A program made the translations under genes and the position numbers. The notes beneath the pieces were generated by a model, which did no database searches, was not told the origin of the DNA, and saw nothing but the letters and a program-made list of their open reading frames with translations. Below, piece after piece: positions 4-38,054 of a stretch of 64,000 bases of DNA; position 1 is the stretch's first letter, and each line of letters opens with the position of its first letter. The stretch is from an uncultured delta proteobacterium (GTDB lineage: Bacteria; Desulfobacterota; Binatia; UBA9968): assembly GCA_963804165.1 (NCBI GenBank), contig CAWDPO010000001.1, positions 1 through 64,000 of the forward strand, given 5' to 3'.

Positions 4-1215
4 TCAACTGGCATTCGGCACAGAAACCTGATGGGAGAGAGTAATTTCCCGCCGCTCCGCAGCCGATTGCAGAATCGCGAGACAAACTTCCAGTGTGGCT
101 TGGCCCCATCGGCCATCGTGGAAGATCCGCCGATCATTCACAATGCCTTCGTAGAACTCCTGCAACTCGGCTTCTCTGGCGTCTATCCCCTTGGGAATAT
201 GTATTTCTCTCTTGCCGTCTTCATCGTAAATGAAAAGACCGTCGGGCGATTGGCGGATGTCTCCTCTTTCACAGGTCACAACCGTGAGGCCGAAAAATGG
301 TTGATGCTGTTTGCGCGGCCCGCTGTCGCCGCCGACCCACGCTCCCGGTTTCGAACCTCCATAGCGCCATTCTTCGAGGCGGCTCTCGAGTTGCTTGGCT
401 CGATCGGGTCCGCTGCCCAGGGACTTGAAAAATTTCCTGGCTTTGACGTGTCTCTCCGGATCTTTCTGTTCTCCGCCTTCGCCGATCCCCCAAGTCAACT
501 CACCGGTATCGAAGTAGGCGTAGCCGCTGTACACCAAATTAGCGGGCACACTGTCTTCGAACTCTAGGTAACAAGCGTAGTGTCCCTCGCCGGGACGAAA
601 AGGATTGCCGATGGCGGTCATGGCGCGCACGGTTTTTACCATGCCGCCGCCTAGAAGCCGAACGATGTCGACTTGATGGGGCCCCTGATTCAAAACCACC
701 CCTCGACTCATTTTAATATCGTGATCGGGAAACGGCCTGTAGATGTGGTCCTTGTAATAAGTAGTGCTGATCATCAGCAGCCTGCCGAGTGCGCCGCTCT
801 TGATGATCTCGCGCATTTTTCTGATCGGCGGATCGAAGCTGTGCGTGTGACCCGACATGAGCTTGACGCCGTTTTCTTCGGCTGCCGCATTCATCGCCCG
901 GGCCTCATCAATCGAGATCGCCATCGGCTTTTCCACGATCACGTGCTTACGCTTTTGCAGCGCCGCAATGGAATGGCGTGCATGAAACTCATGCGGCGTG
1001 GCCACGTAGACGGCATCGACGTTCGGGCTTTCGCACATCTCCTCGACGCTGTTATAGACATCGGCTTTGAATTCCTCGTGAAAGCGTTCCAGCGCGTGCT
1101 CGCGCAGGTCCGCCGCCGCGGTAAGCTGTATATAAGGTAGCCGCGCGATCTCCGGGATGAGCCGGCCGGCCGCCATGCCGAGTCCGGCAAAACCTAGTCT
1201 TAGGATTTCAGACAC
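4..1215 (-). CDS. Gfo/Idh/MocA oxidoreductase, phthalate cis-dihydrodiol dehydrogenase (OphB/Pht4)-like
   Basis: GxAGLG Rossmann start, VYVATP, VEKPMA, GHTHSFD and HDGRWG..TLEVC motifs; GTG start at 1215 after GGGAG; paralog at 38055. Confidence 0.85.
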   Translation of the reverse strand: MSEILRLGFAGLGMAAGRLIPEIARLPYIQLTAAADLREHALERFHEEFKADVYNSVEEMCESPNVDAVYVATPHEFHARHSIAALQKRKHVIVEKPMAISIDEARAMNAAAEENGVKLMSGHTHSFDPPIRKMREIIKSGALGRLLMISTTYYKDHIYRPFPDHDIKMSRGVVLNQGPHQVDIVRLLGGGMVKTVRAMTAIGNPFRPGEGHYACYLEFEDSVPANLVYSGYAYFDTGELTWGIGEGGEQKDPERHVKARKFFKSLGSGPDRAKQLESRLEEWRYGGSKPGAWVGGDSGPRKQHQPFFGLTVVTCERGDIRQSPDGLFIYDEDGKREIHIPKGIDAREAELQEFYEGIVNDRRIFHDGRWGQATLEVCLAILQSAAERREITLSHQVSVPNAS

Positions 1216-1312
1216 GAACAACTCCCAAATTATTTTTTACGATCTCGGACGCGAAATTTGCCCTCACGAAGGAAATCATTTCTAGAGCTGAAAAATCATG
1301 TCGGAGCAAAAA

Positions 1313-2773
1313 TCAAATTCCTTCAAACAAATCTTTCCACTTTGTGAAAATTCGCTGCCGCAGCTCCGGGCTATTGACGGCCACCGGCGGAAAATCATTC
1401 AGCCACTCGTAAGGCCGGCAGGCGTTGATCACGAGATTGTGCGCGCTGTAGCGCTTTCTTCCGGCTTTATCTGGGCTGGAACGGTCTTCCGGCGGGATCC
1501 TGGGATCCAGCTGCCAGACCGCTGTGCCGGGGATGACCTTGACGGCATGCTCCGGGATGCAGCGGGTGGCCAGCGCCCACAACACTTCTTCTGTATTGGT
1601 GATGTCAATGTCGTCGTCGACTAGGAACCAGATGTGATTGCCGCTGTACTGGTCGCCGCCTGGAACAAGAACACGAATCACGTCATCCACATGACCGGCG
1701 TACATCTGTTTTAAGCCCAAGACGCGCAGCCGCGGCTTGGCCAGAGTAAAGATCCCTTTGACACCCGGCACGCCTGCTCGTTTCAACTGTGCCATCGAAT
1801 CGAGATCCTCGTTTCCCAAGATGGCAAAATAATCGCCCCCGATGGGTCTGGAAGGCGGCGCGCCGAAAATGATCGGATCGTTTCGATGATAGATTGCTTT
1901 AACCTCGATAATAGTTTCCGGGCGTCGTCCATGAGCGTAATACCCGGTCCATTCACCGAAAGGCCCTTCCGGCATCATCACCTCGTCGGCCGAGGGAATG
2001 AAGCCTTCGATGGCGATTTCGCCAAAGGCGGGAATGGGGAGACCGGTGAACTCTCCGCGAACAATCGGATAGGGACTCTTATGCAGATAACCGGCGACTT
2101 CGAATTCCGAGACGCCGTCCGGCGAGTAGAAAAATCGTGAACCGGCCAGCACCGGCAGGATCGGCTCCTGGCCGACCGAAATGACCACAGGACATTTCTT
2201 TCCTCGCGCCCAGTACTTGCGGCGGATGACATCGCCGTGCTTGCCGTGTTCGATAAAAAGCGCGCCGGTTTTCCGGTCGTGGATGGCGACGCGGTAAGCT
2301 CCGACGTTGACGAAACCGCTGTCCGGGTCTTTTTGAATCACGCAGCATCCGGTGCCGATGTAGCGACCGCCGTCGTTTTCATGCCACTTCGGCGTCGGAA
2401 ACCGGTAAAGGTCGATGGCATCGTCCTTCAAAATGTTTTCCAGGATCGGTCCCGAACTAACTTCTTCGGGCGCCACCGGGCGGAACTCGGCCATGACCTT
2501 TGCGGCTCGTTCGGTCAAGCTCGTCGCGCCAGGCTCCAGATCCAGACCGAACGCGATGCCTGTCCGTTTTACGGTGTTGAACAAGTTCGCGGCCACCCGG
2601 TAGCCTTTGGGATAGTCTCGAATCTCATCGAAGAGGAGCGCCGGTCCGCTCCGCTCGACCATCAGCTCGGTGATGCCGCCGATGTCCTCCTCCCAACCGG
2701 CGCCGTTGATTCTTTTCAGCTCGCCCAGTCGGTCCAGAGTATTTAAATAATCGCGCAGGTCTCTCCAAAGCAT
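1313..2773 (-). CDS. UbiD family (prFMN-dependent) decarboxylase
   Basis: DLRDYL start, PALLF, DGGRYIGT, NVGAYR, EGPFGEWTGYY and VDDDID motifs. Confidence 0.9.
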   Translation of the reverse strand: MLWRDLRDYLNTLDRLGELKRINGAGWEEDIGGITELMVERSGPALLFDEIRDYPKGYRVAANLFNTVKRTGIAFGLDLEPGATSLTERAAKVMAEFRPVAPEEVSSGPILENILKDDAIDLYRFPTPKWHENDGGRYIGTGCCVIQKDPDSGFVNVGAYRVAIHDRKTGALFIEHGKHGDVIRRKYWARGKKCPVVISVGQEPILPVLAGSRFFYSPDGVSEFEVAGYLHKSPYPIVRGEFTGLPIPAFGEIAIEGFIPSADEVMMPEGPFGEWTGYYAHGRRPETIIEVKAIYHRNDPIIFGAPPSRPIGGDYFAILGNEDLDSMAQLKRAGVPGVKGIFTLAKPRLRVLGLKQMYAGHVDDVIRVLVPGGDQYSGNHIWFLVDDDIDITNTEEVLWALATRCIPEHAVKVIPGTAVWQLDPRIPPEDRSSPDKAGRKRYSAHNLVINACRPYEWLNDFPPVAVNSPELRQRIFTKWKDLFEGI

Positions 2774-2845
2774 GGTTCAACCCACTCGGAAACAGTCATT
2801 CGAACGCCTATCATTGCTCCGTCCTTGATCACTGCTGAAACCCAA

Positions 2846-4111
2846 TCACCGCGCTGCTTCCGCTTCCAGATGCTTGCAGTGCTCGCGCCAGTCTGTCGTG
2901 TTGGACACGACGCCATACCAGACAATCATGTCGGCGAAATGATTCAGCTCATTATCTCGAATCACATGTTGCGGATCGCGGCCTTCCCGGACGTCCGTGA
3001 TCGCCTTCAACAAGAGCTTACGCGCCGCCACGATCACTTTGTCGGATGAGACGAGATGTTCCCGTGTTCTATCCTGAATCGGTCCTTCACCCTCAACGAC
3101 GCAGGTGTCTTGGGCCGCGAAGCCGCCAATGCCGCTGTAGCTTTCCGTCGCCATCAAGCCGCGATCCTGCAGGTAGCGATTCGCCTTGCTGCGCGTCAAC
3201 TGGTAGTCCGGGGTCATCTCGGGGCGCGACCGATTGACGATTTTCATATCCAATGGCGCTTCTCTGTTGAACATGAAACTATATTTCCAATGGTGCGTGT
3301 CATCGATCGGCACGTGCCAATTCACCGAGTAGCCTGCTCTGGATTGTACCCCGCCGGGGAAGACCGTTAGGTTAGGTAGGACAAAATTCCAGATGCGCAG
3401 ATCTTTCTTATCATTTCCGACGGGGCAGCTACGGCAAAGCCTCACGCCAAATCCGGTTACTTCGGCGTTGATCGATTCGATTTCCGGAGCGACGCCTCTG
3501 CCGCCGCGAAAGCCCTGATAATCGGGAACTCCCGTGTGCCTTAAATTGTAGTTGGGATGGTGTAGAAAAGAACCATGAATCGGATCGATATTGCCTTCGT
3601 TGGCCTGGAGGTAATTGCAGGATTGCAAATATTTCGTGACCGAGCGCTGCTTTTCCGGAACCGAGAGAAACTCGTAGTTCGGCAGGAACGGTGGCTTGCC
3701 GTGACCCATATAGGCGAAGATCACTCCTCCTCGCTCCTCACAAGGATATGCTTTGTGACGAATCGAATCCCGAAAATTCTCTTCTCCTCCGGCCTCTCCG
3801 GGCATGTCGATGACCTTGCCGTGAATGTCATACAGCCAGCCATGATAGATGCATCTGAGCCCGCCATCCTCGACACGCCCGTAGCTGAGATCGGCGCCTC
3901 GGTGGGAGCAATGAAGAGCGAGCAACCCCGCCACGCGCTGTGAATCACGAAACAAGATCAGCTCTTCACCGAAAAGCTTGAGGCTCAGGGGCGCGCCTTG
4001 CGGCGGCAGTTCCGCGGAGAGCGCAGCGGGTTGCCAGTAGCGACGCAACATCTCGCCGCAAGGGGTGCCAGGATCGGTCTGGGTTAGTAGATCGTTTTCC
4101 TCTTTGATCAT
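2846..4111 (-). CDS. Rieske non-heme iron oxygenase alpha subunit (phthalate 4,5-dioxygenase-like)
   Basis: GTPCG.MLRRYWQP; Rieske CSH-x16-CIYH; mononuclear Fe motif EGNIDPIHGSFLH and AQD. Confidence 0.9.
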   Translation of the reverse strand: MIKEENDLLTQTDPGTPCGEMLRRYWQPAALSAELPPQGAPLSLKLFGEELILFRDSQRVAGLLALHCSHRGADLSYGRVEDGGLRCIYHGWLYDIHGKVIDMPGEAGGEENFRDSIRHKAYPCEERGGVIFAYMGHGKPPFLPNYEFLSVPEKQRSVTKYLQSCNYLQANEGNIDPIHGSFLHHPNYNLRHTGVPDYQGFRGGRGVAPEIESINAEVTGFGVRLCRSCPVGNDKKDLRIWNFVLPNLTVFPGGVQSRAGYSVNWHVPIDDTHHWKYSFMFNREAPLDMKIVNRSRPEMTPDYQLTRSKANRYLQDRGLMATESYSGIGGFAAQDTCVVEGEGPIQDRTREHLVSSDKVIVAARKLLLKAITDVREGRDPQHVIRDNELNHFADMIVWYGVVSNTTDWREHCKHLEAEAAR

Positions 4112-4217: not shown

Positions 4218-5234
4218 TCAGCGCACTTGCCCTATGCCTTCTTGTTGGACACGGCGCACAAAACTGTTATCGACGAATTCCGCAAGATTGAGATCGCGCA
4301 GTTTTGGATTGCTTTCAGCCAACCCCGCGAGGTTTGCCTGCAGGTCATCCATGTTGGTGTAGGGGAACAATGGCATCGGATCGATATAAAGTTTGTAATT
4401 GAGCTCCAGCACGGAGGTGTCCTCCGTGCGCAGGTAGCGGCTGTATATGCGAATGACCTCCGGACGATTCTTCGGGTCCTTGCTCCACTGGGCGGCTTCT
4501 ATGAGAGCACGGGCGAATTTTTGTAGGACTTCCCGGTTCTGATCCCGGAAGCGGCGCGTCGTCATGAAAGAACTGCCGATGACGCGGATGCCCATTTCAA
4601 CGGCGTCACCCAGAGAATGGTAGGGAACCTTCGCGCGCTCGAATCGCTCCACCGTCGAGGCGACCGCGCTGACCATGCCAGACCGGAAGGCTGCCACTCT
4701 CTCCGACCCGCCGCCGGCAATCGACAAAAGCTCCACGTCGGCAGGTTTAAGGCCAAGCTTCTCCAGCATGCGTCGCGTCGCATAGTGACTTGAACCGCCG
4801 ATGCGATCGATGCCTATCCGCTTTCCTTTGAGCTCCTGCACGCTCTTGATCTGAGGCTGGACGATGAGCTTGTATTGCGTAGGTTCATTGCTCGCGATAA
4901 TGACCAAGTCCCCGCCGCCTGCGGCGGCCTGAGCCGCGGTCTCGGGACTGCCGGAATAAAGCGCTGTCTCTCCGGCGATCAACGCGGGAATTCCCGCCGC
5001 GGAGCTGGCGATGAAAATCAGTTCCGGCTGCAGTCCGTTGCGGCTGAAAAATCCTTTCTCCTGAGCGGTCCAAAGCGAGATCCGATTGCCGGTAATGGAC
5101 GCGTAGCCGATCTTGAGGCGGTCCGTCTTGGGCGCGCTCGCGGCAAAGAGCTGTGAAGTGCGCTGTAACGACAGGACCGCGATCAGGACGAGCAGTAAAC
5201 GACCGCTTGGCCGAAGCACTTTAATAAGCGTCAT
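4218..5234 (-). CDS. ABC transporter substrate-binding protein, SsuA/NMT1/THI5-like
   Basis: Signal peptide, LWTAQEKGFF..NGL, ELKGKRIG; ATGA overlap with the upstream gene. Confidence 0.8.
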   Translation of the reverse strand: MTLIKVLRPSGRLLLVLIAVLSLQRTSQLFAASAPKTDRLKIGYASITGNRISLWTAQEKGFFSRNGLQPELIFIASSAAGIPALIAGETALYSGSPETAAQAAAGGGDLVIIASNEPTQYKLIVQPQIKSVQELKGKRIGIDRIGGSSHYATRRMLEKLGLKPADVELLSIAGGGSERVAAFRSGMVSAVASTVERFERAKVPYHSLGDAVEMGIRVIGSSFMTTRRFRDQNREVLQKFARALIEAAQWSKDPKNRPEVIRIYSRYLRTEDTSVLELNYKLYIDPMPLFPYTNMDDLQANLAGLAESNPKLRDLNLAEFVDNSFVRRVQQEGIGQVR

Positions 5235-6184
5235 TCTAAATCCCAATAGCCGACACCCATGCCCATGATGGCGCTGTAAAATGCTTCATAGACGAGGTGT
5301 TGGGGTGCCGCTCCCGCGATCGCGCCGAGCAGAACGAGCCAGTTCTTCATTTCGAGTCCGCCGTTTTCGAGCAGCTCCTGCGCGCTCAACTCAACCAGTT
5401 TGGCGCCGTCGCCGCGTGAGATCAGCTGGATTGCGCTCTGATCAAAATCTACGCAGATAGAGCCCAAAGTATGCGAGCCCCGATAATGATGGAACGGGTA
5501 ACTCGATGGAAAGTGGGAGAGACCTCCCGAAGCGTACAGCGTAATGCGCTCGTGGCAGGGCAGGCCATCGACGATTTCTCTGATCGCCTCGCCCAGCCGG
5601 TAGCATCGCCGGGGCGTGATGCCGGGTAAATTAAATGCATTGACGAAGAGCAGCACCACCGGGATATCGGCGTCTCCCACTATAGTGCGCAGAATCTGGC
5701 AGTGAGCATGCGAGAGCAGCTCGTCATTAGGAAAAGAGCGCGAGAACGCGACGTCGAACTCGCGCTCCAAAAGACCGTTCAACAGTTTCTCGGCAAGCTC
5801 AGTGTGACAGCGATATACGGCGCCACGCTTGGTTCCGTTTTCACCCCGCTCGGTCAAAAATACTTTGTCGCCGAGGTAGAGCGATATCTGGGGCAGGTTG
5901 TCTTCGTGAAAGTTCTCCTCTTGATCGTCACCGATCAGAATAAGCGCGTCGGGTTTCTTTTCTCGGAGCCGTGCGCGCAGCAGGTCCAAACCTTGTCTCA
6001 CCCGGCCGTATCGTTGCTCGCAATCCTCCAGGCTTTCTTTGGCAATGTTCGGATTGACCGGCGCATCTTTGCCATGACGGCTTCCAAACCTCGCCCACGT
6101 TCTTTCCCGCATTTTGTCCCAGCCGCGTGGTTCAACCAATGCGTAAGCGTGGGAGGAGGCGAAGCCTGCGACGATTCGAGCCAT
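5231..6184 (-). CDS. LigB-fold (class III) extradiol dioxygenase, DesZ-like GDDQ subtype
   Basis: ASSHA, IGDDQ.ENF, SHAH, ASGGLSHF and E.KNW motifs. Confidence 0.8.
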   Translation of the reverse strand: MARIVAGFASSHAYALVEPRGWDKMRERTWARFGSRHGKDAPVNPNIAKESLEDCEQRYGRVRQGLDLLRARLREKKPDALILIGDDQEENFHEDNLPQISLYLGDKVFLTERGENGTKRGAVYRCHTELAEKLLNGLLEREFDVAFSRSFPNDELLSHAHCQILRTIVGDADIPVVLLFVNAFNLPGITPRRCYRLGEAIREIVDGLPCHERITLYASGGLSHFPSSYPFHHYRGSHTLGSICVDFDQSAIQLISRGDGAKLVELSAQELLENGGLEMKNWLVLLGAIAGAAPQHLVYEAFYSAIMGMGVGYWDLE

Positions 6185-6193
6185 GGGCCGATC

Positions 6194-6367
6194 TTACCCC
6201 GAGCGGTTCTGGCGTGAGCGGACGGGCCTGCCGGCACGGACGTCCTCGGTGATTTTGCGAGCGGCTTCAAGAATGCCGGCCATGGAATAATCGTACGCCG
6301 TCATGATGACGATTTTTTTCTTTTCTGCTTTCATCCTTTGAAGATCAGTGATTTTGACTCTTGCCAT
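6194..6367 (-). pseudogene. Internally deleted PanB-like gene (57 aa)
   Basis: N-terminus (KITDLQRMK.EKKKIV.MTAYD) fused in frame to the C-terminus (EAA...DVR.G.PVRSRQ) of the paralog at 14139. Confidence 0.8.
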
Positions 6368-8997: not shown

Positions 8998-9810
8998 ATG
9001 GGAACATTAGCCGAAGACATCGAAAGAACGCGTGGCCTATACCAATCCATCAAGACACCTTGGAAGCGGCCGCGTTTCCCCGATCCGCCAACTGAATTCC
9101 TCGCGCCGGAAAAATTTCTCGAGCTCGCCAAAGAAGCCGTCCTGGTGCACCATACGAAGATCAATCATCCCTTCTGCGTCAAATTATTTCGCGGCGAGTG
9201 GACGGTGAAGCAGCTGCACGGTTGGATCAAGCAGGAATATCACGCCGTCATGCAGACGCTGAGAAACGACGCGAATATCGTCGCCAACGCGGGAACGCTG
9301 GCCGAGATCCGCGAGCAACTGGGCGTGCTGATCGAAGAAGCGGGCGAAGATATCTGCGGCGGTAAGTACCCGGCGCACCCGGAGCTCTTTGTCAGAATGG
9401 GCGAGGGACTCGGTTTGAAGCGAGAGGTGATTATCAACTCCGAGCCGTCCGCGCTGATGCAGTTGATCATCGATGAAGAGCGCTATCGAGGGTTGCGCCT
9501 GACGATCGGAGGCTTGCCATCCAATCTGCGCCTCGGCGAAAGGATTAACGCTCTGGTTTTCGCGATTTGGGCGGAGGTTTTACGCGATAAGTATCATGTC
9601 CCCGAGAAGGCCCTGGATTTCTTTCACGCTCACGCGGTCGATGAGGAACATGGAAAAGTCGGCGAGCGGGTTATCATGAGCCGGGCCACGACCAAGGAAG
9701 CTCAAACCGACATATGGATGAGACTGAAGAAAGGCCAGGCTAAGCAATGGATCAACTACGACGCTTATTATGAAGCGGCCGAGATGGCCGACGAAGAAGT
9801 CCTCGGATGA
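8998..9810 (+). CDS. Heme-oxygenase-like diiron oxidase (PqqC/CADD/TenA fold)
   Basis: NHPF, W.KQEY, LIEEAG...PAHPELF..MGEGLGL, FFHAHAVDEEHG (E/H and H/D/H ligand set). Confidence 0.75.
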   Translation: MGTLAEDIERTRGLYQSIKTPWKRPRFPDPPTEFLAPEKFLELAKEAVLVHHTKINHPFCVKLFRGEWTVKQLHGWIKQEYHAVMQTLRNDANIVANAGTLAEIREQLGVLIEEAGEDICGGKYPAHPELFVRMGEGLGLKREVIINSEPSALMQLIIDEERYRGLRLTIGGLPSNLRLGERINALVFAIWAEVLRDKYHVPEKALDFFHAHAVDEEHGKVGERVIMSRATTKEAQTDIWMRLKKGQAKQWINYDAYYEAAEMADEEVLG

Positions 9811-9841: not shown

Positions 9842-10852
9842 ATGAAAAAAACAATTCTAACAGCTACTCTGCTGTTAATTCTTGCGCCATCGGTTTCGGC
9901 GCAAGAGAAGAAACTCGAACCTCTGGTTGTTTCCTACGCCTCTGTGTCCGGCAGCCGGGCGCCGTTGTGGATCGCCAAAGAGATGGGACTTTTTGAAAAG
10001 TATGGCCTGGATGGTAATCCGATTTTTGTGCCTGCAGGCTACCCTTCCATAAGCGCCTTGATCAGCGGCGACGTTCACTTCATCGCTACCGGCGGATCGG
10101 TAGTTGCGGCCGCGTCCGCACAGGGCGCGCCCGTGGTCATGGTCGCGACCCTCGGTTCGATTGCGTATAAGCTCATGGCTCATCCGTCAATCTCGTCCGT
10201 TAAAGAACTCAAAGGCAAGGTGATCGGCGCGTTGCGGCCGGGCACGACGACGGACTTCGTGTTGCAGCGGATTCTCCTGAAACTTGGCCTCGTGCCGGGC
10301 AAGGACGTCACGATCATGCCGACCGGTCTGAGCCGATCAGACGAGAGGCTGCTGTTGATGTTTCAAGGTAAGATTCATGCGACCATCGGAACGGTGGACA
10401 ACCTCGCGCAGTTGGAATTAAGAGGCTTGAAGGTGAACGTATTGGCTGATCCAGTTGAGTTGGGTGTCGCGACTCCCGCCAGCGACATCTCCTCGACGCG
10501 ACAGTTTTTAGCCAATCATCGCAATCGGGCAAAAGCGTTTCTCAGAGCTTTTTGCGAAGCGATCTGGCTGGGAAGGAATAATAAGGAGATCGCCTTCCGC
10601 GCTTACCGTAAATATATGAGGATCGACGAGCCCAAGCTTTTGGAATCGATGCATCGAAACTATTTGTTAACCTCTATCCCCGTTAAACCTTATCCGATTG
10701 AAGATGCGATCCAGGCGGATATTGAAGACTTGAGCGCGAGCATCACCGAGCTGAGGGGCAAAAAAGCCGCTGACTTCATGGACCGATCGCTTTTGAATGA
10801 ATTGGAAAGCGAAGGATTTTTTGCCCGACTGCATGGGCAAAAGACGAAATGA
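9842..10852 (+). CDS. ABC substrate-binding protein, SsuA/NMT1-like
   Basis: Signal peptide, RAPLWIAKEMGLFEKYGL, LGLVPGKDV. Confidence 0.8.
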   Translation: MKKTILTATLLLILAPSVSAQEKKLEPLVVSYASVSGSRAPLWIAKEMGLFEKYGLDGNPIFVPAGYPSISALISGDVHFIATGGSVVAAASAQGAPVVMVATLGSIAYKLMAHPSISSVKELKGKVIGALRPGTTTDFVLQRILLKLGLVPGKDVTIMPTGLSRSDERLLLMFQGKIHATIGTVDNLAQLELRGLKVNVLADPVELGVATPASDISSTRQFLANHRNRAKAFLRAFCEAIWLGRNNKEIAFRAYRKYMRIDEPKLLESMHRNYLLTSIPVKPYPIEDAIQADIEDLSASITELRGKKAADFMDRSLLNELESEGFFARLHGQKTK

Positions 10853-10919
10853 TCGGCCTCCAGGAAACCAAGAGTGTTTCCGCTCGGAAACTGATCCAGT
10901 TTTCGCGCTAGTTTCACTT

Positions 10920-11843
10920 ATGCAAACCTTACGACTCGCCTACCGTGATGAAGACCGTACGCCGGTCATCTTCTGCATCAAGGAGATGGCGCAACGCCAC
11001 TACGACGTGAATGTCGAGGTCATCCTGATCAAAGGAACAAAAGATTACGAAGCGGCGCTGTTCAACGATGCGTGCGACGTGATCATCGAGCACTTGGAGT
11101 ACCTCTACCCCGCGGCCGCGCAGGGAAAGAGGGTCACCATGTTCTGCGCGCCGAGCCTCGGGCGTGGTTTGGAGTTGGTCGTCCCGGCTACCGTGCAAAG
11201 CGTGGAAGCTCTCAGAGGGAAAAATCTGGCAGTCCGCACTTCCGGCAGACCTCACGCGCTCGTGCTGTGGCTCAGAATGATGGGGCTGGAACAGGACGTG
11301 AAGATCGTCATGGTCGATGACCATGAGGTTGGCAGATGGGGCCAATGGAAAAAAGTCCTGAGCGGCGAATGCATTGCCGCCTTCCTGTCCGATCTGTACT
11401 TGCCTGACGCGCTTGCTGGCGGTTTGAAAGTTTTGCCGGTTTCCGATCTCCCGGTGGTCGCTCATTATGCCCAGGCTTGTCTGTCGAAGTTTGCAAGAGA
11501 GAGGTCAGATCTTCTTAGGAACTATACCAAAGCGGTAATTCATGCTGTGTGTTTGATGATCCTAAAAAAGGCAGAAGCTTTGAAAATCGTCGCCCAGGAG
11601 CCGATGAAGCGGATGAAGATTACCGATCACCGTGAGTTAGAAAGGCAATTCGATTCGATTGTAAAGCTTCTTCAGCTAAAACCCTATCCGACACCCCAGG
11701 CGATCACCAATACTTTTGCGATTGCCACTGAGGAATTCGGCGCCGGCGACATCAATCCTTTGACCCTTTGGGATCTCCATTGGGTGAAAGAGCTCGATGA
11801 AAATGGCTTTATCGATGGCTTAATAACCCAAATGAAGCGATGA
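10920..11843 (+). CDS. SBP-fold (NMT1-like) protein without signal peptide
   Basis: LRGKNLAVR and KPYPT motifs; no hydrophobic N-terminus. Confidence 0.6.
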   Translation: MQTLRLAYRDEDRTPVIFCIKEMAQRHYDVNVEVILIKGTKDYEAALFNDACDVIIEHLEYLYPAAAQGKRVTMFCAPSLGRGLELVVPATVQSVEALRGKNLAVRTSGRPHALVLWLRMMGLEQDVKIVMVDDHEVGRWGQWKKVLSGECIAAFLSDLYLPDALAGGLKVLPVSDLPVVAHYAQACLSKFARERSDLLRNYTKAVIHAVCLMILKKAEALKIVAQEPMKRMKITDHRELERQFDSIVKLLQLKPYPTPQAITNTFAIATEEFGAGDINPLTLWDLHWVKELDENGFIDGLITQMKR

Positions 11844-13063: not shown

Positions 13064-14101
13064 ATGGGAGAAATTCTCGGCATCGGCATGACCCACGCGC
13101 CGCACCTTCAGTTCACCGACGAGAACATGGCCAACGTGCTGCGCCGCTTGCTCAAGAGCGAGCGCACGCCAGAAGCAATGAAAAACCCGCAGAACTGGCC
13201 GGCGGGCATGCGCGCGGAATGGGGCAATGACGAGGGACTAACCGCCGCGCGCAAGCATCGCGCCGCGCTCCTAGAGGGAGTGCGCGCCGCGCGCGCCGCG
13301 CTTGACGCCTTCCAGCCGGACTGCATTTTAATATGGGGCGATGACCAGTACGAAAACTTTCGCGAGGACGTGATTCCGCCCTTCTGCGTTTACGCTTTCG
13401 ATGAAGTCGACTGCGCGCCATTTAAAGCGAGCGACGGCCTCGGCGCCGACACCAACGTCTGGAACGAGCCCAAGGATACAGTCGTGAAAATCAAAGGGCA
13501 TCGGCAGGCGGCGAATCTGCTTGCCGAAAAGTTGCTCGAAAATGGCTTTGACGTTACCTGGTCCTATCGATTGCATCACGCCCAAGTGCTCAGCCACGCC
13601 TTTGCACGGACAATTCTGTATCTCGACTACGATCGCAAAGGTTTTCCCTATCCGATTATCCCTTTCCACGTGAATTGTTATGGCAGCAATCTGCGCATCA
13701 AAGGAAACTCTATCGAAGGCCGGCCGCCGCCTTCGCCGGCGCCTTGGCGTTGCTACGATCTGGGGAAACAAATCGCACGCATCGTCGAGGAAAGCCCGTG
13801 GCGCGTGGCCCTGATCGGCTCATCGAGTTGGTCCCACGGCACGCTCACGGCCAAGCATCACTTCTTGTATCCCGACGTGGAGGTGGATCGCCAACGTTTT
13901 GCGGAACTACAAGCCGGGAAGTTGCGACAGTGGCGCGACCTGGATGCTGAGCAGATGCGCTCCTCCGGCCAGCATGAAATGTTGAATTGGCTCTGTCTGG
14001 CGGGCGCAATGGAAGGGCGCAAGGCTTCACTGCAGCTTTTCGTCGAGTCTTATATTTTCAATTCGGACAAGGCGATGGTTTTGTTTCCACCCGCGCTCTG
14101 A
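13064..14101 (+). CDS. LigB-fold extradiol dioxygenase
   Basis: GIGMTHAP, WGDDQYENF, SHAF, SSSWSH, GQHEMLNW. Confidence 0.8.
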   Translation: MGEILGIGMTHAPHLQFTDENMANVLRRLLKSERTPEAMKNPQNWPAGMRAEWGNDEGLTAARKHRAALLEGVRAARAALDAFQPDCILIWGDDQYENFREDVIPPFCVYAFDEVDCAPFKASDGLGADTNVWNEPKDTVVKIKGHRQAANLLAEKLLENGFDVTWSYRLHHAQVLSHAFARTILYLDYDRKGFPYPIIPFHVNCYGSNLRIKGNSIEGRPPPSPAPWRCYDLGKQIARIVEESPWRVALIGSSSWSHGTLTAKHHFLYPDVEVDRQRFAELQAGKLRQWRDLDAEQMRSSGQHEMLNWLCLAGAMEGRKASLQLFVESYIFNSDKAMVLFPPAL

Positions 14102-14138
14102 CAAATAGGCGCGAATTCAAATCTTCAAGGAGCGATGT

Positions 14139-14945
14139 ATGAAGAAAGTCACCGTCGTGGACATTCAACGCATGAAGCAGGAGAAGAAAAAGATCGTCAC
14201 GATGACCGCCTATGATTTCCAGATGGCGCGCATCATCGACAAGGCCGGCGTCGACATCATTCTCATCGGCGACAGCGGCGGACGTTACTTGTTAGGGCAC
14301 GAGGACAACAACTCGGTGACGATGGACGAGATGGTGCTGATGGCGCGCTGCGTCAGCCGCGGGGCAGCACAGGCGCTGGTGGTGGCGGACATGCCGTTTA
14401 TGTCCTATCAAGTGAGTCGCGAAGACGCGCTGCGCAATGCCGGCAGGTTGATTCAGGAAGCCGGCGCGCAAGCGGTCAAGCTCGAAGTGGGCGCTGCCTA
14501 TGCGCCGACCGTCGAAGCCGTGGTCAAAGCCGGTATTCCGGTCATGGCGCACATGGGACGCACGCCCATGACGACGATCGGCAGCGACTATCGTTCTGGA
14601 TCGGCCGACGAAGCGCAGGTTATCCGCGACGCCGAAGCGCTCGAGGGCGCCGGAGCTTTCTCTTTGCTGCTCACCGGGATTTCGCCGGAGCTCGCCGAGA
14701 GAATTACTGCGAAGGCGAAGATTCCCACGATCGCGGGCTTCGGCGCCGGCGACCGCTGCGACGGCCAGATCGGCGTTACTCACGGCGTCGTGGGATTTAC
14801 CTTGGAAGAGCTCGAGCGGCCACGCTCCGCGTACGGTCCGGTGGCGGTGTCTTTGTTCGAGGCGGCGGAGCGGTTTACCGCCGACGTACGCTCCGGCAAG
14901 CCGGTGCGCTCGCGCCAGGACCAGAGCGTTAAGGACGCCAAATAA
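14139..14945 (+). CDS. PanB-like (ketopantoate hydroxymethyltransferase family) protein with divergent active site
   Basis: TAYD, IGDS, VADMPFMSY, AVKLE and DGQ retained; LVLE replaced by LLLT. Confidence 0.8.
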   Translation: MKKVTVVDIQRMKQEKKKIVTMTAYDFQMARIIDKAGVDIILIGDSGGRYLLGHEDNNSVTMDEMVLMARCVSRGAAQALVVADMPFMSYQVSREDALRNAGRLIQEAGAQAVKLEVGAAYAPTVEAVVKAGIPVMAHMGRTPMTTIGSDYRSGSADEAQVIRDAEALEGAGAFSLLLTGISPELAERITAKAKIPTIAGFGAGDRCDGQIGVTHGVVGFTLEELERPRSAYGPVAVSLFEAAERFTADVRSGKPVRSRQDQSVKDAK

Positions 14946-14997: not shown

Positions 14998-15068
14998 GGA
15001 GTGATGGAGTATTGGAGTACTGGAGTGTTGGGTCTTAAATGCATCACTCCATTATTCCATCACTCCAA
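14998..15068. repeat. Inverted arrays of 8-bp TGGAGTRN / ACTCCA units
   Basis: ggagtgat ggagtatt ggagtact ggagtgtt ... catcactccattattccatcactcca. Confidence 0.75.
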
Positions 15069-15139: not shown

Positions 15140-15997
15140 ATGGCAGAGCTTGTAGAAATCATGGGCATCAGCCACAGTCCGAATTTTCCGGGGCAGATAG
15201 CGGAGCCTAACCCTGAGCCGGCGATCGTCGAGGGGGCGCGCGATTACGAGCTGATGAGGCAGCGAATGGCAAGCACCAAGCCGGATGTTTTGGTGGTGAT
15301 CGCCAGCGACCACCTCAATCAGTTTTTCATGGATAATATGCCGGCGTTTCTGGTCGGCAAGGCGCCAAGGGCGGAAGGGCCGTTTCCGCATGAAATGCGC
15401 ACCTTCGGTATCGCGCCCTATCGCGCTGACGTCGAAGTCGACGTGGCGAAGAACATGCTTCAGTTGGCGCCGAAGATGGGCGTCGACTTTTCGTTCTCCG
15501 ATGAGTTTCGCATCGACCACGCGTTCACCGTGCCACTCAACTTCATCCGGCCGGAAATGGATCTGCCGATCGTCCCGATTTTTACCAACGTGATGGCTCC
15601 GCCCGTTCCGCCGGCCCAGCGCTTCTATGAAGTCGGCAAAGCCATACGAAAGATCATCAATGAGCTGCCTTCGAACAAGCGCGTGGGCGTGTTGTCGAGC
15701 GGCCATCTCGCCATTGAGATCGGCGGACCGAAGGAAGGACGCTCTTCTTCAGACCCGGAGTTCGATCGGAGGATGATGAACCTGGTCGGCCGCGGTGACG
15801 TGGAAAACGTAATCGAGGAAGCGACCTGGGATCGGATGATGGCGTCTGGCAATGTGACTCCCGGGTTTTTGAATTTCGTATTGCTGATGGGATTGGCTGA
15901 TGGGAAGCCCCCTAGCGTTTCGGGAGTTCGCTTTCCGAAATCCAAAGGCTCGGTCCCGTACATGGCTTGGGACAGTCAGCCGGGAGTGCTGCCATGA
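15140..15997 (+). CDS. LigB-type dioxygenase beta subunit, atypical C-terminal ligands
   Basis: GISHSP, ASDHLNQFF..NMPAF, IDHAFTVPL; SGHLAIEIGG in place of GGxSH. Confidence 0.8.
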   Translation: MAELVEIMGISHSPNFPGQIAEPNPEPAIVEGARDYELMRQRMASTKPDVLVVIASDHLNQFFMDNMPAFLVGKAPRAEGPFPHEMRTFGIAPYRADVEVDVAKNMLQLAPKMGVDFSFSDEFRIDHAFTVPLNFIRPEMDLPIVPIFTNVMAPPVPPAQRFYEVGKAIRKIINELPSNKRVGVLSSGHLAIEIGGPKEGRSSSDPEFDRRMMNLVGRGDVENVIEEATWDRMMASGNVTPGFLNFVLLMGLADGKPPSVSGVRFPKSKGSVPYMAWDSQPGVLP

Positions 15998-16281
15998 GCA
16001 AGTTTCAGGTGGACAAGGTGATGCGCGAAGCGATTCTAGACCCCAAAGTCGCGAGCGCGTTCAAGGCCGATACGGAGAAGTTTCTCGAAGGCCGCGACCT
16101 GACGGAAGCAGAAAGAAAAGCATTGATCGATGTCGATTACGCCACGCTCTATCGCCTCGGCGCGCACCCCTTTCTTCTCAATGGATTCACGCGATTGGTG
16201 TGGAAAGGCGACAAGGCGGCCTTGAACGCCGAGTACAGAAAAAATATTGCGCCTTTCGGTTACCCGGACTTTTCGACATAA
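15994..16281 (+). CDS. LigA-like small subunit
   Basis: LTEAERKAL...DYATLYRLGAHPFLL; ATGA-coupled to the LigB-type gene. Confidence 0.7.
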   Translation: MSKFQVDKVMREAILDPKVASAFKADTEKFLEGRDLTEAERKALIDVDYATLYRLGAHPFLLNGFTRLVWKGDKAALNAEYRKNIAPFGYPDFST

Positions 16282-16283
16282 AC

Positions 16284-16319
16284 GGTTCAAACAGTTAAAG
16301 TCGTTCAACGTGTTCAAAT
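16284..16319. repeat. Short GTTCAA-type tandem repeats
   Basis: ggttcaaacagttaaagtcgttcaacgtgttcaaat; similar tracts at ~4188-4211, ~55033-55100 and ~62169-62256. Confidence 0.5.
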
Positions 16320-16362
16320 TGTCCGGACTTGCAATGTCGTTGAAGCGTAGAGAGAGGGTGTT

Positions 16363-17121
16363 ATGGCGAAGAAAGACAACAAAACAATTCAAGATCTAAA
16401 GCGGCGCCTCTTGGAGGCAATCCGCATTCTGAGCGCAGAAGGCGTGCTCGACGGCTCCGGCCATTTGAGCGCAAGGATCCCCGGCACCGAAACTTTTATT
16501 ATCAATCCGCGTTACGCGGGCGTGCTCGCCGATCCCGCCGATTTGTGCGTCGTCGATTTTTCCGCAAAACGCGTCGCTGGGACAGAGCCGATTCCCTTAG
16601 AAACCGTGATTCACAGCGTCATTTATAAGTCGCGCACCGACATCGGCAGTGTTCTGCACTGCCATCCTCGATTCAGCATTCTCGTGGGTCTGCAGGAGTC
16701 CAGTCTTATCCCATTCAATCGCGACGCCAGGTTGTTTGCCGACGGCGTGCCGATTTTTCCGAACAGCGCCGGCATCAATTCCGAAAAGCTCGCTGCGCAG
16801 ATGTTGGAAGCGATGGGCGACCACTACGCGGTGTTTCTCAAAGGCCACGGCATCGTCGTGTCAGAGCAAACCATCGAGGGCAACGCCGTCTCGGCGATCC
16901 GGCTGGAAAGGGCCGCGCGCGATCAAATCTTGCTCTCATCGTTCAGCCAACCCAAACCTCTGTCCGATGGCGGAAGAAGTCGACTCAGATCTCGCATGGA
17001 TCATCCCTACCGAATATGGCCCTACCTTTTATATCAACACGGGATCAAATCGAAAAAGGATGCGCGGAAACTCACCCGGTCGATGTTGAAGCAAATTTGG
17101 CCGGACGAAATCAAGTTATAA
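16363..17121 (+). CDS. Class II aldolase/adducin family protein (possible decarboxylase)
   Basis: GHLSARIP, PLE..IH..IY..R.D, VLHCHP, LKGHG. Confidence 0.85.
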   Translation: MAKKDNKTIQDLKRRLLEAIRILSAEGVLDGSGHLSARIPGTETFIINPRYAGVLADPADLCVVDFSAKRVAGTEPIPLETVIHSVIYKSRTDIGSVLHCHPRFSILVGLQESSLIPFNRDARLFADGVPIFPNSAGINSEKLAAQMLEAMGDHYAVFLKGHGIVVSEQTIEGNAVSAIRLERAARDQILLSSFSQPKPLSDGGRSRLRSRMDHPYRIWPYLLYQHGIKSKKDARKLTRSMLKQIWPDEIKL

Positions 17122-24543: not shown

Positions 24544-25447
24544 ATGGAACAAGTCCGCGCAGCGATCTTGGGTTCCGGCAATATCGGCACGGACCTCATG
24601 TACAAACTCAAGCGCAGTAACCTACTGCGCCCCGTGCTGATGGCTGGCATTGTTCCCGATTCGGAAGGTTTGGCGCGGGCGCGCCAAGAAGGATTGGCCA
24701 TCACCAGCCGAAGGCATCGACGGCTTACTCAAACAGAAAGAAACTTTTGAAATCGTCTTCGATGCCACCACGGCGGCGGCTCACAAGAAGCACGCGCCAC
24801 TTTTGCGCCACGCGAACAAGATCGCCGTCGATCTAACTCCCGCCGCTGTCGGGCCCTACGTCATCCCGCTGGTCAATCTCGACGAGCATGTCGGCGCGAG
24901 CAACGTCAACCTGGTGAGTTGCGGTGGCCAGGCCACCGTGCCGCTGGTGAGCGCGCTCGACGAAGTCGCTCCGGTAGAGTACGCCGAGATCGTCGCGACC
25001 ATCGCGAGCAAAAGCGCCGGCCCCGGCACCAGGCAAAATATCGACGAGTTCACTGAAACTACCGCTCGCGGCTTAGAGAAGATCGGCCACGCGGCGCGCG
25101 GCAAGGCGATCATTGTCTTGAATCCCGCCGAGCCGCCGATCCTGATGCGCAATACCGTGCACGGCATCCTACTGGATGCCGACGCGGTAAAAATCCTTCG
25201 CTCGATCGAATCCATGGTCGAGCGCATCAAGCAGTATGTACCCGGCTATCGTCTGCGCGCGAAGCCGTTGATTCAAGAGCTGGCGAACGGCGAGCACAAG
25301 AAGAAAGTAACTCTTTTTGTTGAAGTCGAGGGTGCGGGTGATTTTTTGCCGAAATATGCCGGCAATCTCGACATCATGACCTCGGCGGCGGTCAAGGTCG
25401 GTGAAGAAATTGGCCGGCACCTGCGCGCCGGCACTTGGAAAAAGTAA
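24544..25447 (+). CDS. mhpF: Acetaldehyde dehydrogenase (acylating), frameshift ~24706
   Basis: [48 protein letters not shown]. Confidence 0.88.
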
Positions 25448-25464
25448 GCAGCGGAGGCTATACG

Positions 25465-26493
25465 GTGAGCGAGAAAACCTTCATCCATATTTTGGACAGT
25501 TCGCTACGGGACGGCAGCCACGCGCTAAGTCACCAATACACCGCGGCGCAGGTCAGCAGTGTGGCGCGCGGCTTGGACGACGCGGGAGTCGAAATGATCG
25601 AAGTCTCCCATGGCGACGGTTTGGGCGGCTCAACCATCACTTACGGATTCTCGAAACAATCCGAAATGGAGTTGCTGCAAGCGGCATCCGAGGTGATTAA
25701 GCATGGCAAGCTCGCCGTGTTGCTGTTGCCCGGGATCGGCACCAAGGACGATCTCAAGATGGCGGCGGACTACGGCGCCAAGGTCGCGCAGATCGCCACC
25801 CACGTCACCGAAGCGGACATTGCCGAGCAGCATATTGGCTTAGCGAAGCAAATGGGCATGGAAGTGATCGGCATGCTCATGCTGTCGCATATGGGGTCGC
25901 CGGAGACGATCGCCGAACAGGGAAAGCTCATGGAAAGTTACGGCGCGGACGTGGTCCTAGTCACCGACTCCGCGGGCGCGCTCATGCCCGAAACGGTAAA
26001 GCAACGGGTCGCGGCGCTGCGCGCCGCGTTGAAAATCGGCGTCGGCTTCCACGGCCACAACAATCTCTCGCTCGCCGTCGCCAACAGCGTTGCGGCGATC
26101 GAAGAAGGCGCGCGCTGGATCGACGCTTGTACCTGCGGCTTGGGCGCCGGCTCGGGCAACACGCCCACGGAGGTGCTCGCGGCCGTCTTGGATAAAATGG
26201 GCTACGAGACCGGCATCGATTTGTGGAAGATCATGGACGTCGCCGAGAACGTCGTGCGCCCGATCATGCCGAAACCGGTGCGCATCGGCAAAGTCAGCCT
26301 GACGATGGGCTATGCCGGCGTCTACTCGAGCTTTCTGCTCCATGCCGACAAAGCCGCCGAACAGTTCGGCGTCGATGCCCGCGATATTTTAGTCGAGCTC
26401 GGCAAACGCAAGGTCGTCGGTGGCCAGGAAGATATGATCGTCGAAGTGGCGATGATGCTCGCCGAGAAGCAGAAACAGAACGCGAGCGCCTGA
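25465..26493 (+). CDS. mhpE: 4-hydroxy-2-oxovalerate aldolase (DmpG/MhpE)
   Basis: LRDGSH, EVSHGDGLGG, LLLPGIGT, GFHGHNN, GYAGVYSSFLLHA, VGGQEDMI. Confidence 0.92.
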   Translation: MSEKTFIHILDSSLRDGSHALSHQYTAAQVSSVARGLDDAGVEMIEVSHGDGLGGSTITYGFSKQSEMELLQAASEVIKHGKLAVLLLPGIGTKDDLKMAADYGAKVAQIATHVTEADIAEQHIGLAKQMGMEVIGMLMLSHMGSPETIAEQGKLMESYGADVVLVTDSAGALMPETVKQRVAALRAALKIGVGFHGHNNLSLAVANSVAAIEEGARWIDACTCGLGAGSGNTPTEVLAAVLDKMGYETGIDLWKIMDVAENVVRPIMPKPVRIGKVSLTMGYAGVYSSFLLHADKAAEQFGVDARDILVELGKRKVVGGQEDMIVEVAMMLAEKQKQNASA

Positions 26494-27550: not shown

Positions 27551-28408
27551 ATGACTGATACTGTTTTGCGTTCTCGAAACGTGATGGCGGGAAGGATTCG
27601 CACCCATTATACCGAGTGCGGTAACAACGGCGCCGCCGTTGTGCTGTGTCACGGCGGCGGTCCGGGCTCATCAGGTGAAGCCGGTTTCGCTCAGTTGATG
27701 CCGACGTTGGCGACAAAATTTCAAGTTTATGCTCTCGACAGCGTCGGCGGCTTTGGTGAGACCGATCCCTACTATCCAGCGAGCGAAGGCGTGCAAAGCC
27801 GGGTCGATCAGCTCGAAGCGTTCATGGACACGCTTTGCATTGAAAAGGCCGTGGTGGGCGGAAACTCCCAGGGCGCATGGGTCGCGGCGAAATACGCTCT
27901 CGAACATCCCGATCGTGTCGACAAGCTCGTTCTCATCGCCAGCAATACAATCTCCGGCGCCATGGGGATGGAAATCCCGATGACCGAGGGCATGCGCGCG
28001 ATCCGCGCCTATGACGGCACAGAGAAATCTATGCGCGCTTTTCTGCAAACCATCGTCTGGAACAAAAACCTGATCACCGACGCGTTGGTCAAAGTGCGCA
28101 ACGACTGCGCCAATCGTGCCGGCGCCGAAGACGCGCGAAAAATCTTTCAAGAAGGCCAGCAGAGATTGACGAAAGATCCCAACCTGCGGCTGAAATACGA
28201 CATGCGCGACACGCTCCCCAAGCTGACCATTCCGACGATCTGCATTTGGGGCGAGGACGACGGCTTTGCGCCGGTGGAGCTCGGCAGGCAATTGGAAAGT
28301 ATGCTGCCGAAGGTCAAATTTCACTATGTCGCCAAAGCCGGTCACCAGGTGCAGAACGATCAGCCCGAATTGGTGAGCAAGCTGATCATGGATTTTCTCG
28401 GCGCGTGA
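27551..28408 (+). CDS. Alpha/beta hydrolase, meta-cleavage product hydrolase (MhpC/BphD)-like
   Basis: HGGGPGSSG, GNSQG nucleophile elbow, WGEDD, GHQVQ.D. Confidence 0.8.
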   Translation: MTDTVLRSRNVMAGRIRTHYTECGNNGAAVVLCHGGGPGSSGEAGFAQLMPTLATKFQVYALDSVGGFGETDPYYPASEGVQSRVDQLEAFMDTLCIEKAVVGGNSQGAWVAAKYALEHPDRVDKLVLIASNTISGAMGMEIPMTEGMRAIRAYDGTEKSMRAFLQTIVWNKNLITDALVKVRNDCANRAGAEDARKIFQEGQQRLTKDPNLRLKYDMRDTLPKLTIPTICIWGEDDGFAPVELGRQLESMLPKVKFHYVAKAGHQVQNDQPELVSKLIMDFLGA

Positions 28409-36698: not shown

Positions 36699-36738
36699 TC
36701 CTAATTCACGACGGTCACAAAGCCCCGAGATCACGTTT

Positions 36739-38010: not shown

Positions 38011-38054
38011 AAGTTTCGGAATACTGAAACACAAAGGAACAACGCGGAGGGATT

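Follow-up and report, generated by a model that had tools for sequence, protein, structure and literature searches.

We analyzed a PanB-like gene carried by a 64,000-nucleotide stretch of DNA from an uncultured Binatia bacterium (contig CAWDPO010000001.1 of assembly GCA_963804165.1), hereafter called the window. The gene, intact and located at 14139-14945 on the plus strand, encodes a 268-aa paralog of PanB, the ketopantoate hydroxymethyltransferase of pantothenate synthesis, in which a threonine occupies the position of the proposed catalytic glutamate. This Glu-to-Thr swap is the trait of an old and conserved clade, as judged from alignments and trees, and genes of this Thr type lie near genes for ring cleavage and other steps of aromatic catabolism much more often than the background would predict. 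Taken together, the sequence comparisons lean toward the view that this branch left pantothenate synthesis and was recruited to the catabolism of aromatic compounds. They also point to what appears to be a clear case of functional divergence and of systematic mis-annotation.

Family, fold and active site of the PanB-like protein

The open reading frame (ORF) is preceded by an AAGGAG ribosome-binding site (14127-14132, plus strand) located 6 bases before its ATG. The protein matches Pfam PF02548 (Pantoate_transf) with 274.1 bits (cut-off 28.7) over positions 1-254 of the 259 of the profile, and it has a length similar to that of PanB and no extra domain. It also scores above curated panB models, with 222.6 bits for the TIGR00222 equivalog (cut-off 207.55) and, barely, 272.7 bits for NF001452 (cut-off 272). 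Since these thresholds are passed, automatic annotation names it 3-methyl-2-oxobutanoate hydroxymethyltransferase, which is also the label that metagenome sources give to its relatives, and our NCBIfam profile search returned no model setting it apart from panB. Within the reach of our searches and knowledge, the PanB family is regarded as having a single function. The PF13714 profile reached 28.2 bits, under its 31.5 cut-off, and PF03328 (HpcH/HpaI) gave no match to the protein, the two PF03328 loci of the genome lying on other contigs. Compared with an ortholog of 97% identity in another metagenome-assembled genome (MAG; locus L049), the gene has a ratio of non-synonymous to synonymous substitution rates (dN/dS) of 0.058, indicating purifying selection.

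The AlphaFold2 model, computed from 124 aligned sequences, reached a predicted local distance difference test score (pLDDT) of 95.9 and a predicted template modelling score (pTM) of 0.92, and it has the triose phosphate isomerase (TIM) barrel fold of PanB. Searched with Foldseek, the model gave as best structures the PanBs 1oy0, 1o68, 1o66, 1m3u and 3vav (E-values from 1.5e-23 to 1e-21), with 37-39% identity to PanB chains and, for the ten best, TM-scores of 0.76-0.85 normalised to the query. The only solved structures matching at the family level are Glu-type PanBs. After a wide gap came members of the phosphoenolpyruvate (PEP) mutase/isocitrate lyase superfamily (3fa3, 2dua, 3b8i, 1ujq and 1pym; probability 1.00, E-values of about 1e-10 to 4e-9), which agrees with the superfamily named in the first-pass annotation of this DNA. 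Thus, 2,3-dimethylmalate lyase (3fa3), the oxaloacetate decarboxylase PA4872 (3b8i), 2-methylisocitrate lyase (1ujq) and phosphonopyruvate hydrolase (2dua) are distant fold kin of the protein, with E-values of about 1e-10 to 1e-9, TM-scores of 0.57-0.68 and only 15-20% identity. The protein shares the superfamily barrel, with its Mg2+ site where the strands end on the C-terminal side. In these enzymes, an oxalyl-type group is bound to Mg2+ and the bond next to it is broken or rearranged. PanB-type proteins are not known to have the Cys-bearing gating loop seen in the lyases. The PanB-like protein is thus a member of the PanB family by both profile and fold.

Next, we compared its active site with that of PanB (EC 2.1.2.11; 1m3u from E. 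coli, 1oy0 from M. tuberculosis, 1o66/1o68, 3ez4 and 3vav), with which it shares the family, the fold and the Mg/2-oxo-acid residues. In phmmer alignments with three solved PanBs, the motifs GDS (44-46), AD (83-84) and VKLE (113-116) are unchanged, as the first-pass annotation had stated, and D45 (codon 14271-14273), D84 (14388-14390), K114 (14478-14480), E116 (14484-14486) and H138 (14550-14552) are invariant across 124 aligned sequences of the Thr and Glu groups alike. These invariant columns delimit a metal- and substrate-binding stretch at 14271-14552, plus strand like all codons given here. PMC13488298 lists D46 (as printed; Asp45 in the phmmer alignment), D84, K112, E114, H136 and E181 as the E. 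coli residues within 5 Å of bound pantoate, strictly conserved among the homologs compared there, and names HLGLTPQS and DGQILVMHD as conserved PanB motifs. Five of these six residues are present in the PanB-like protein, Glu181 being the one absent.

At the Glu181 position, Thr179 of LLLTGI aligns with the glutamate of LVLECV in E. coli and of VVMEMV in M. tuberculosis, which confirms that the proposed catalytic glutamate is missing. In the model, this threonine closes the β-strand 175-179, at the C-terminal end where the catalytic residue of a barrel is expected; to turn its ACC codon (14673-14675) into a Glu codon would take two base changes or more. Glu181 is said to have been proposed as the catalytic base in the PanB structure paper of 2003. 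The other departures that had been noticed on first reading, GRTPMT for GLTPQS and VTHG for VMHD, were likewise confirmed by alignment. Three residues are lost together in the Thr clade, namely Glu181, the Gln of TPQS (Q144M) and the Asp of HD (D216G), all of them 97-100% conserved in Glu rows (97% for the Gln and 100% for the Asp), where the PanB-like protein has Met and Gly at the latter two. The GGYKVQG loop, which had been reported as lost, is in fact only one residue shorter in the clade and devoid of the VQG part: its two glycines are kept in 0.90 and 0.70 of 88 Thr rows, the PanB-like protein itself having S and D. The CDGQ motif is mostly retained.

The Thr-type enzymes also carry changes of their own. 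The Leu following GDS is replaced by Gly, and directly after this loop R49 (14283-14285) is found in 89% of the 88 Thr rows, as compared with 33 Glu rows. There is also a one-residue insertion ahead of GxGAG relative to Glu-type PanB. Just after this GxGAG loop, position 205 (14751-14753) is Asp in 91% of the Thr rows and Pro, Asn, Ala or Lys in the Glu rows. D205, which in the model sits on the loop joining strands 197-199 and 209-212, is a candidate replacement acid/base. On the basis of Glu181, of the TPQS and HD motifs and of the pathway context described below, the protein is not to be filed as an isofunctional ketopantoate hydroxymethyltransferase, a judgement that we draw from sequence comparison.

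The Glu-less clade and its genomic context

To place the swap within the family, we examined the residue aligned with Glu181 in the 116 nearest homologs, counting the query (length of 230 aa or more, 49-97% identity): Thr is found in 113, Ser in two and Ala in one, so the threonine is not a chance substitution. A library-wide search, limited to the 150 best representatives plus the query, gave Glu in 128 of 151 rows and Thr in seven, the rest being gaps or other residues. In a FastTree phylogeny of 142 rows, picked from the matches of the PanB-like protein and from genomes of its relatives and hence not an unbiased sample of the family, 39 Glu rows make up one side of a single branch with a support of 99, and the 103 rows of the other side comprise 99 Thr, three Ser and one Ala. 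The same split, with 20 Glu rows, was obtained for a 52-row subset with an IQ-TREE mixture model (Shimodaira-Hasegawa-like approximate likelihood ratio test, SH-aLRT, 99.6).

At least two further Thr-type clades exist. The second is represented by a paralog on contig 46 of the source genome, in which His138 is replaced by Gln; in the search made with it, 119 of 120 matches have Thr. The third, abundant in metagenomes, consists of proteins of about 275-280 aa (P0291-P0389) in which KLEG has become KLDG, the His motif reads AQFG and an LDFT[NH]SG motif is present; it accounts for the matches listed from about rank 22 onwards in the contig-46 paralog search, and one member comes from a Betaproteobacteria MAG. 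Both clades fall below the panB cut-offs, unlike the clade of the PanB-like protein, and sources still name the third-clade proteins panB. On contig 46 itself, two of these more divergent Thr-type paralogs form a tandem pair (326190-327998; locus L002 1489-3312, minus strand) with the motifs LDLTW and LDLTM, the first member being the one with the His138 to Gln change and the second being split by a frameshift and carrying in-frame TGA codons.

Searches outside these genomes added little. A protein search of a plasmid collection matched 437 records, all below 60% identity, and the top matches listed were at about 45%, as expected of canonical PanB; with no plasmid record at Thr-type identity, this search supplied no annotated neighbourhood from a cultured host. 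Similarly, the ESM Atlas search with the PanB-like protein returned only PanB-named clusters. A full-text literature search, whose scope left out most subscription journals so that a publication is possible, revealed no Glu-less or catabolic PanB paralog. Three literature matches were discarded: the Haloferax "PanB2" is a proteasome ATPase, a naphthalene proteomics match is a canonical PanB spot, and a match on nicotine degradation is irrelevant to Glu-less PanB.

We then asked how the Thr-type gene relates to the canonical panB, panC and panD. The source genome assembly (7.5 Mb, 46 contigs, 81% complete) gave five PF02548 matches corresponding to four PanB-like loci, none of them with Glu: the 14139-14945 gene, the contig-46 tandem pair and a remnant at 6194-6367. 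The first-pass annotation had seen no panC or panD nearby; neither gene was found anywhere in the assembly. Among 41 related genomes (one of which, G005, enters the counts only), a full-length PanB with a score of 384-403 bits occurs in 36, and the 30 canonical loci that were translated all show Glu together with the TPQS and HD motifs. The canonical panB has panC as its direct neighbour in each of the five genomes checked for this; in the relatives panC adjoins the Glu-type panB and not the Thr-type paralog. The class scoring 269-287 bits, to which the PanB-like gene belongs, was found in 8 of the 41. Five further paralog-bearing genomes (three Dehalococcoidia, one Thermodesulfobacteriota and one Alphaproteobacteria MAG) also have a Glu-type PanB by residue. 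Overall, a Glu-type PanB was recognised in 12 of 13 paralog genomes, from the residue itself in 11 and from the score only in G039; the source MAG is the exception. In G025 and G027, the two paralog genomes checked, panC is adjacent to the Glu-type gene. These comparisons indicate that the Thr-type gene is an extra copy and not the housekeeping panB. Because relatives have panC beside panB and the assembly is 81% complete, the panB-panC (perhaps panD) region of the source genome is probably unassembled.

To see which genes accompany the paralog, 80 loci with a PanB-like protein were fetched and typed by the residue in the Glu181 column, one incomplete locus being left untyped, and neighbour families were counted within the fetched flanks (about 10 kb) by six-frame searches with hidden Markov models (HMMs). 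The HMMs derive from Thr-type loci, and the Glu-type controls represent other taxa and shorter stretches (13 kb on average versus 19 kb). With these limits, the analysis of the Glu-less clade bears out the link to ring cleavage suggested by the window: Rieske genes are present at 21/23 Thr-type loci and 1/56 Glu-type loci, LigB at 16/23 and 0/56, α/β hydrolases at 15/23 and 0/56, UbiD at 12/23 and 1/56, cupins at 11/23 and 0/56, and GFO at 9/23 and 0/56. In random 20-kb windows of the source genome, the background is 8.3% for Rieske, 2.7% for LigB, 9.2% for UbiD, 2.1% for GFO and 8.3% for the hydrolase; an NMT1-like family (47.6% of random windows) and an unnamed family (29%) were too common to be informative. 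Neighbourhood maps based on the longest ORFs were set aside, as they contained antisense shadow ORFs, and 6 of 9 scanned sequences had no Pfam match.

The immediate neighbour of the Thr-type gene varies. The window shares a LigB neighbour with loci of Binatia and Chloroflexota, and several Binatia loci have instead a cupin-domain protein of 390 aa. In Dehalococcoidia loci the neighbour is an α/β hydrolase located 45 bases upstream, and in other loci it is UbiD or a molybdenum hydroxylase. A separate 350-aa bicupin, which resembles gentisate and 5-aminosalicylate dioxygenases, recurs nearby. Apparent PanB/hydrolase "fusions" of 570 and 506 aa in two Dehalococcoidia loci proved to be artefacts of ORF calling, the true start lying 45 bases after the hydrolase gene. 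The Thr-type gene thus differs from panB in being unlinked to panC and panD, in coexisting with a Glu-type PanB and in residing in aromatic-catabolic clusters, and the protein in having Thr for Glu181, Met for the TPQS Gln and Gly for the HD Asp, plus R49 and D205.

Possible function of the Thr-type enzymes

Considered as a whole, these data make it somewhat probable that the protein has been repurposed as an Mg-dependent enzyme acting on 2-oxo-acids in aromatic catabolism. The first-pass annotation had proposed such an enzyme, acting on a ring-fission product as an aldolase, a lyase or a C1 transferase. The repurposing itself is well supported by the Glu-less branch, the coexisting Glu-type panB and the catabolic linkage; the type of chemistry is inferred from the retained site and the gene context, and any single reaction can be put forward tentatively at best.

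PMC7770189 states that PanB works via a metal-stabilised enol of its 2-oxo-acid; a study cited therein, Sugantino 2003, mentions tetrahydrofolate (THF)-independent hydroxymethyltransferase and enolisation reactions in its title. By analogy, the Thr-type enzyme could chelate the 2-oxo-carboxylate end of an intermediate on Mg2+ and use the metal-stabilised enolate for C-C chemistry at C3-C4, the bond that PanB normally makes. Because the Leu after GDS has become Gly and R49 has been gained, the substrate would probably be larger than that of PanB and likely dicarboxylic; it could arise after ring cleavage by the neighbouring LigB or cupin dioxygenases and the hydrolases. Extradiol or gentisate-type cleavage yields 2-oxo-acids of this kind, as does the hydrolysis of its products. 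Retro-aldol cleavage, acylpyruvate-type hydrolysis and decarboxylation are candidate reactions, with Asp205 as a possible relocated acid/base. We would rank a C3-C4 lyase or hydrolase first, since acylpyruvate hydrolases and class II pyruvate aldolases break the very bond, C3-C4 of a 4-hydroxy-2-oxo-acid, that PanB makes, and then a decarboxylase or a tautomerase.

In meta-cleavage pathways, 2-oxo-acid ring-fission products are processed via a metal-stabilised pyruvate enolate by C-C hydrolases and class II pyruvate aldolases. HpaI/HpcH (PF03328), LigK/RraA-like proteins (PF03737), DmpG/BphI (PF00682 + PF07836) and fumarylpyruvate-type hydrolases (PF01557) would thus be functional analogues of the PanB-like protein; none of their profiles matches it, and these families occupy the same kind of gene neighbourhood and are encoded elsewhere in the source genome. 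A broader and more speculative proposal is that the Glu-less proteins as a superclade are Mg-dependent C-C lyases or hydrolases for 2-oxo-acid ring-fission products, in which the acid/base would have moved from Glu181 at the end of strand 6 to D205 in the loop after strand 7, with the help of R49. This superclade might, again tentatively, unite the clade of the PanB-like protein with at least two further Thr-type clades from soil metagenomes.

Several points weigh against such a repurposing. First, Thr is not a base, and E. coli Asn206, which aligns with D205, is outside the six residues listed within 5 Å of the ligand in PMC13488298. The TIGR00222 score is still higher than the curated panB cut-off. 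The contrast between the neighbours of Thr- and Glu-type loci is overstated, because of the origin of the HMMs, of the shorter control loci from other taxa and of the relatedness of the loci. In Dehalococcoidia loci, LigB is absent within 10 kb, so no single kind of dioxygenase accompanies the paralog everywhere. The window already contains a DmpG-type 4-hydroxy-2-oxovalerate aldolase (25435-26493), which leaves no evident aldolase gap; a "missing aldolase" argument was dropped once this gene and an acetaldehyde dehydrogenase were recognised at 24650-26493. Finally, the check for a separate canonical panB turned out negative in the source genome, the PF02548 search finding no Glu-type panB in the 81%-complete assembly, and a PanB role is therefore formally possible in this organism.

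The explanation that competes best is that the protein is still a hydroxymethyltransferase, which we consider rather unlikely. Another group, either D205 or a water bound by Thr179, would then deprotonate C3, and 2-oxoisovalerate or a different 2-oxo-acid would receive a C1 unit supplied by methylene-THF or by free formaldehyde; such an enzyme might, with the same low likelihood, serve to catch the formaldehyde released by neighbouring Rieske (LigXa-like) demethylases. The complete PanB fold with all its metal and 2-oxo-acid ligands, the largely retained CDGQ motif, the TIGR00222 score and the new conserved Asp one loop away are all compatible with this possibility, as are the Rieske proteins with a LigXa_C domain, which are the most constant neighbours (21/23 loci), and the THF-independent hydroxymethyltransferase reaction named in the title of Sugantino 2003, as cited in PMC7770189. 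However, the joint loss of Glu, Gln and Asp, so conserved in Glu-type PanB, suggests that methylene-THF chemistry was probably given up, making hydroxymethyl transfer from this donor unlikely. Moreover, no folate-linked gene is among the recurrent neighbour families, and a Glu-type PanB is present in 12 of 13 paralog genomes, with panC adjacent in both of those checked (G025 and G027).

It is very unlikely that the gene encodes the working PanB of the organism, a pantothenate isozyme tolerating Thr, even if no canonical panB is found in the source assembly and the curated thresholds are passed: the 81%-complete assembly also lacks panC and panD, which the panB-panC adjacency of relatives would explain by one unassembled region, the other 12 paralog genomes have a Glu-type PanB (11 by residue, one by score alone), the paralog occurs in only 8 of 41 relatives, and its neighbours are catabolic. 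Least likely of all, a catalytically dead scaffold or regulatory subunit, binding a 2-oxo-acid or partnering a dioxygenase, would account for the loss of a residue taken as catalytically essential and for the tight adjacency to LigB genes, but not for metal and substrate ligands invariant across 49-97% identity, new polar residues fixed in the clade, a dN/dS of 0.058 and a neighbour that differs by locus (LigB, cupin or hydrolase), which speaks against one fixed partner.

If the Glu-less branch has another activity than PanB, as the repurposed reading implies, pantothenate-pathway calls in Binatia, Chloroflexota, Methylomirabilota and other MAGs are inflated by paralogs. In that case, the PEP mutase/isocitrate lyase superfamily would gain a new reaction, with T179, D205 and R49 as candidate catalytic residues, and the aromatic-degradation clusters of abundant uncultured soil bacteria would hold a step outside current pathway maps. 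Should the lyase or hydrolase proposal hold for the whole superclade, this step would be an undescribed one of lignin- or phthalate-like degradation in Binatia, Chloroflexota and Methylomirabilota, and thousands of "panB" annotations would be wrong. With a conserved clade and neighbours that offer candidate substrates, the question lends itself to direct testing with recombinant proteins.

The aromatic-catabolic island of the window

As proposed on first reading, the PanB-like gene lies between ring-cleavage dioxygenase genes. Upstream, a LigB-family gene (class III extradiol dioxygenase family, 345 aa, 13064-14101, plus strand; PF02900 with a weak 46 bits) stops 37 bases before it, and downstream is another LigB-family gene (285 aa, 15140-15997, plus strand; PF02900 with 106 bits). 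The latter is followed by a LigA-like small-subunit ORF of 104 aa (15967-16281, plus strand; PF07746 with 30.2 bits, cut-off 25.3), which is 97% identical in an ortholog locus whereas the overlapping alternative frame is 78% identical, and by a class II aldolase/adducin-family gene (16363-17121, plus strand), whose best NCBIfam match is the 3,4-dihydroxyphthalate decarboxylase PhtC, below cut-off.

The 194-base gap after the PanB-like gene contains a dispersed palindromic repeat, a hairpin resembling repetitive extragenic palindromic (REP) elements, at 14998-15067, identified by folding and by its genome copies. The 85-nt segment 14991-15075 folds at -43.6 kcal/mol, and about 30 partial copies of the repeat are present across the genome. 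Contigs from soil metagenomes and metatranscriptomes pile up on this repeat with loose ends on both sides. In three metatranscriptome runs, available as contigs only, short near-identical contigs cover 15552-17120; over the PanB-like gene the cover is thin, with pieces that are 90-95% alike, a pattern that speaks neither for nor against its expression.

These genes belong to a dense aromatic-catabolic island occupying the first 40 kb of the window (1-40430). It holds six of the 18 LigB-family genes of the genome, two triads of UbiD, Rieske (LigXa_C) and GFO-MocA genes (4-4111 on the minus strand and 35265-39281 on the plus strand), two α/β-hydrolase genes, of which the annotated one (27551-28408) is HsaD/BphD-like, an IclR regulator, the acetaldehyde dehydrogenase and DmpG-type aldolase genes at 24650-26493 and ATP-binding cassette (ABC) transport genes. 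RraA-like, HpcH/HpaI and Amidohydro_2 genes were not found in the window.

A second PanB-like element of the island, at 6194-6367 on the minus strand, had been described as a second copy next to a LigB gene. The LigB adjacency holds, the element ending 9 bases before the start codon of the LigB-family gene P0002 (317 aa, 5231-6184, minus strand), but the element is not a gene copy. Sequence comparison identified it as a 57-codon remnant of a second Thr-type PanB gene left by an in-frame internal deletion: its first ~36 residues correspond to the N-terminus of Thr-type PanB, with 72% identity to that of other Binatia families, its last ~23-34 residues correspond to the C-terminus, and about 200 codons are deleted in between. 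In other Binatia, an intact PanB-like gene lies beside or near orthologs of P0002, together with UbiD, Rieske and GFO genes as at 4-4111, indicating that the window once had two such genes, one of which decayed. Matches to P0002 of at least 49% identity were found in 5 of 8 paralog-bearing relatives (6 with a partial match in G020) as compared with 2 of 33 others.

A few minor features of the window and genome were also recorded. A TenA/PqqC or haem-oxygenase-like gene (Haem_oxygenas_2, 8998-9810, plus strand) recurs near the PanB-like gene in several Binatia loci, for example in L053 (11869-12693, minus strand). The source genome has 379 genes for NMT1/THI5-like binding proteins, at least 150 Amidohydro_2 genes and 164 copies of a family of about 350 aa without a Pfam match, one example being at 10797-11843 on the plus strand. 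Finally, AT skew reaches 0.243 in the segment 30001-32000, which lies over a minus-strand ABC permease gene, and is far lower elsewhere in the window.

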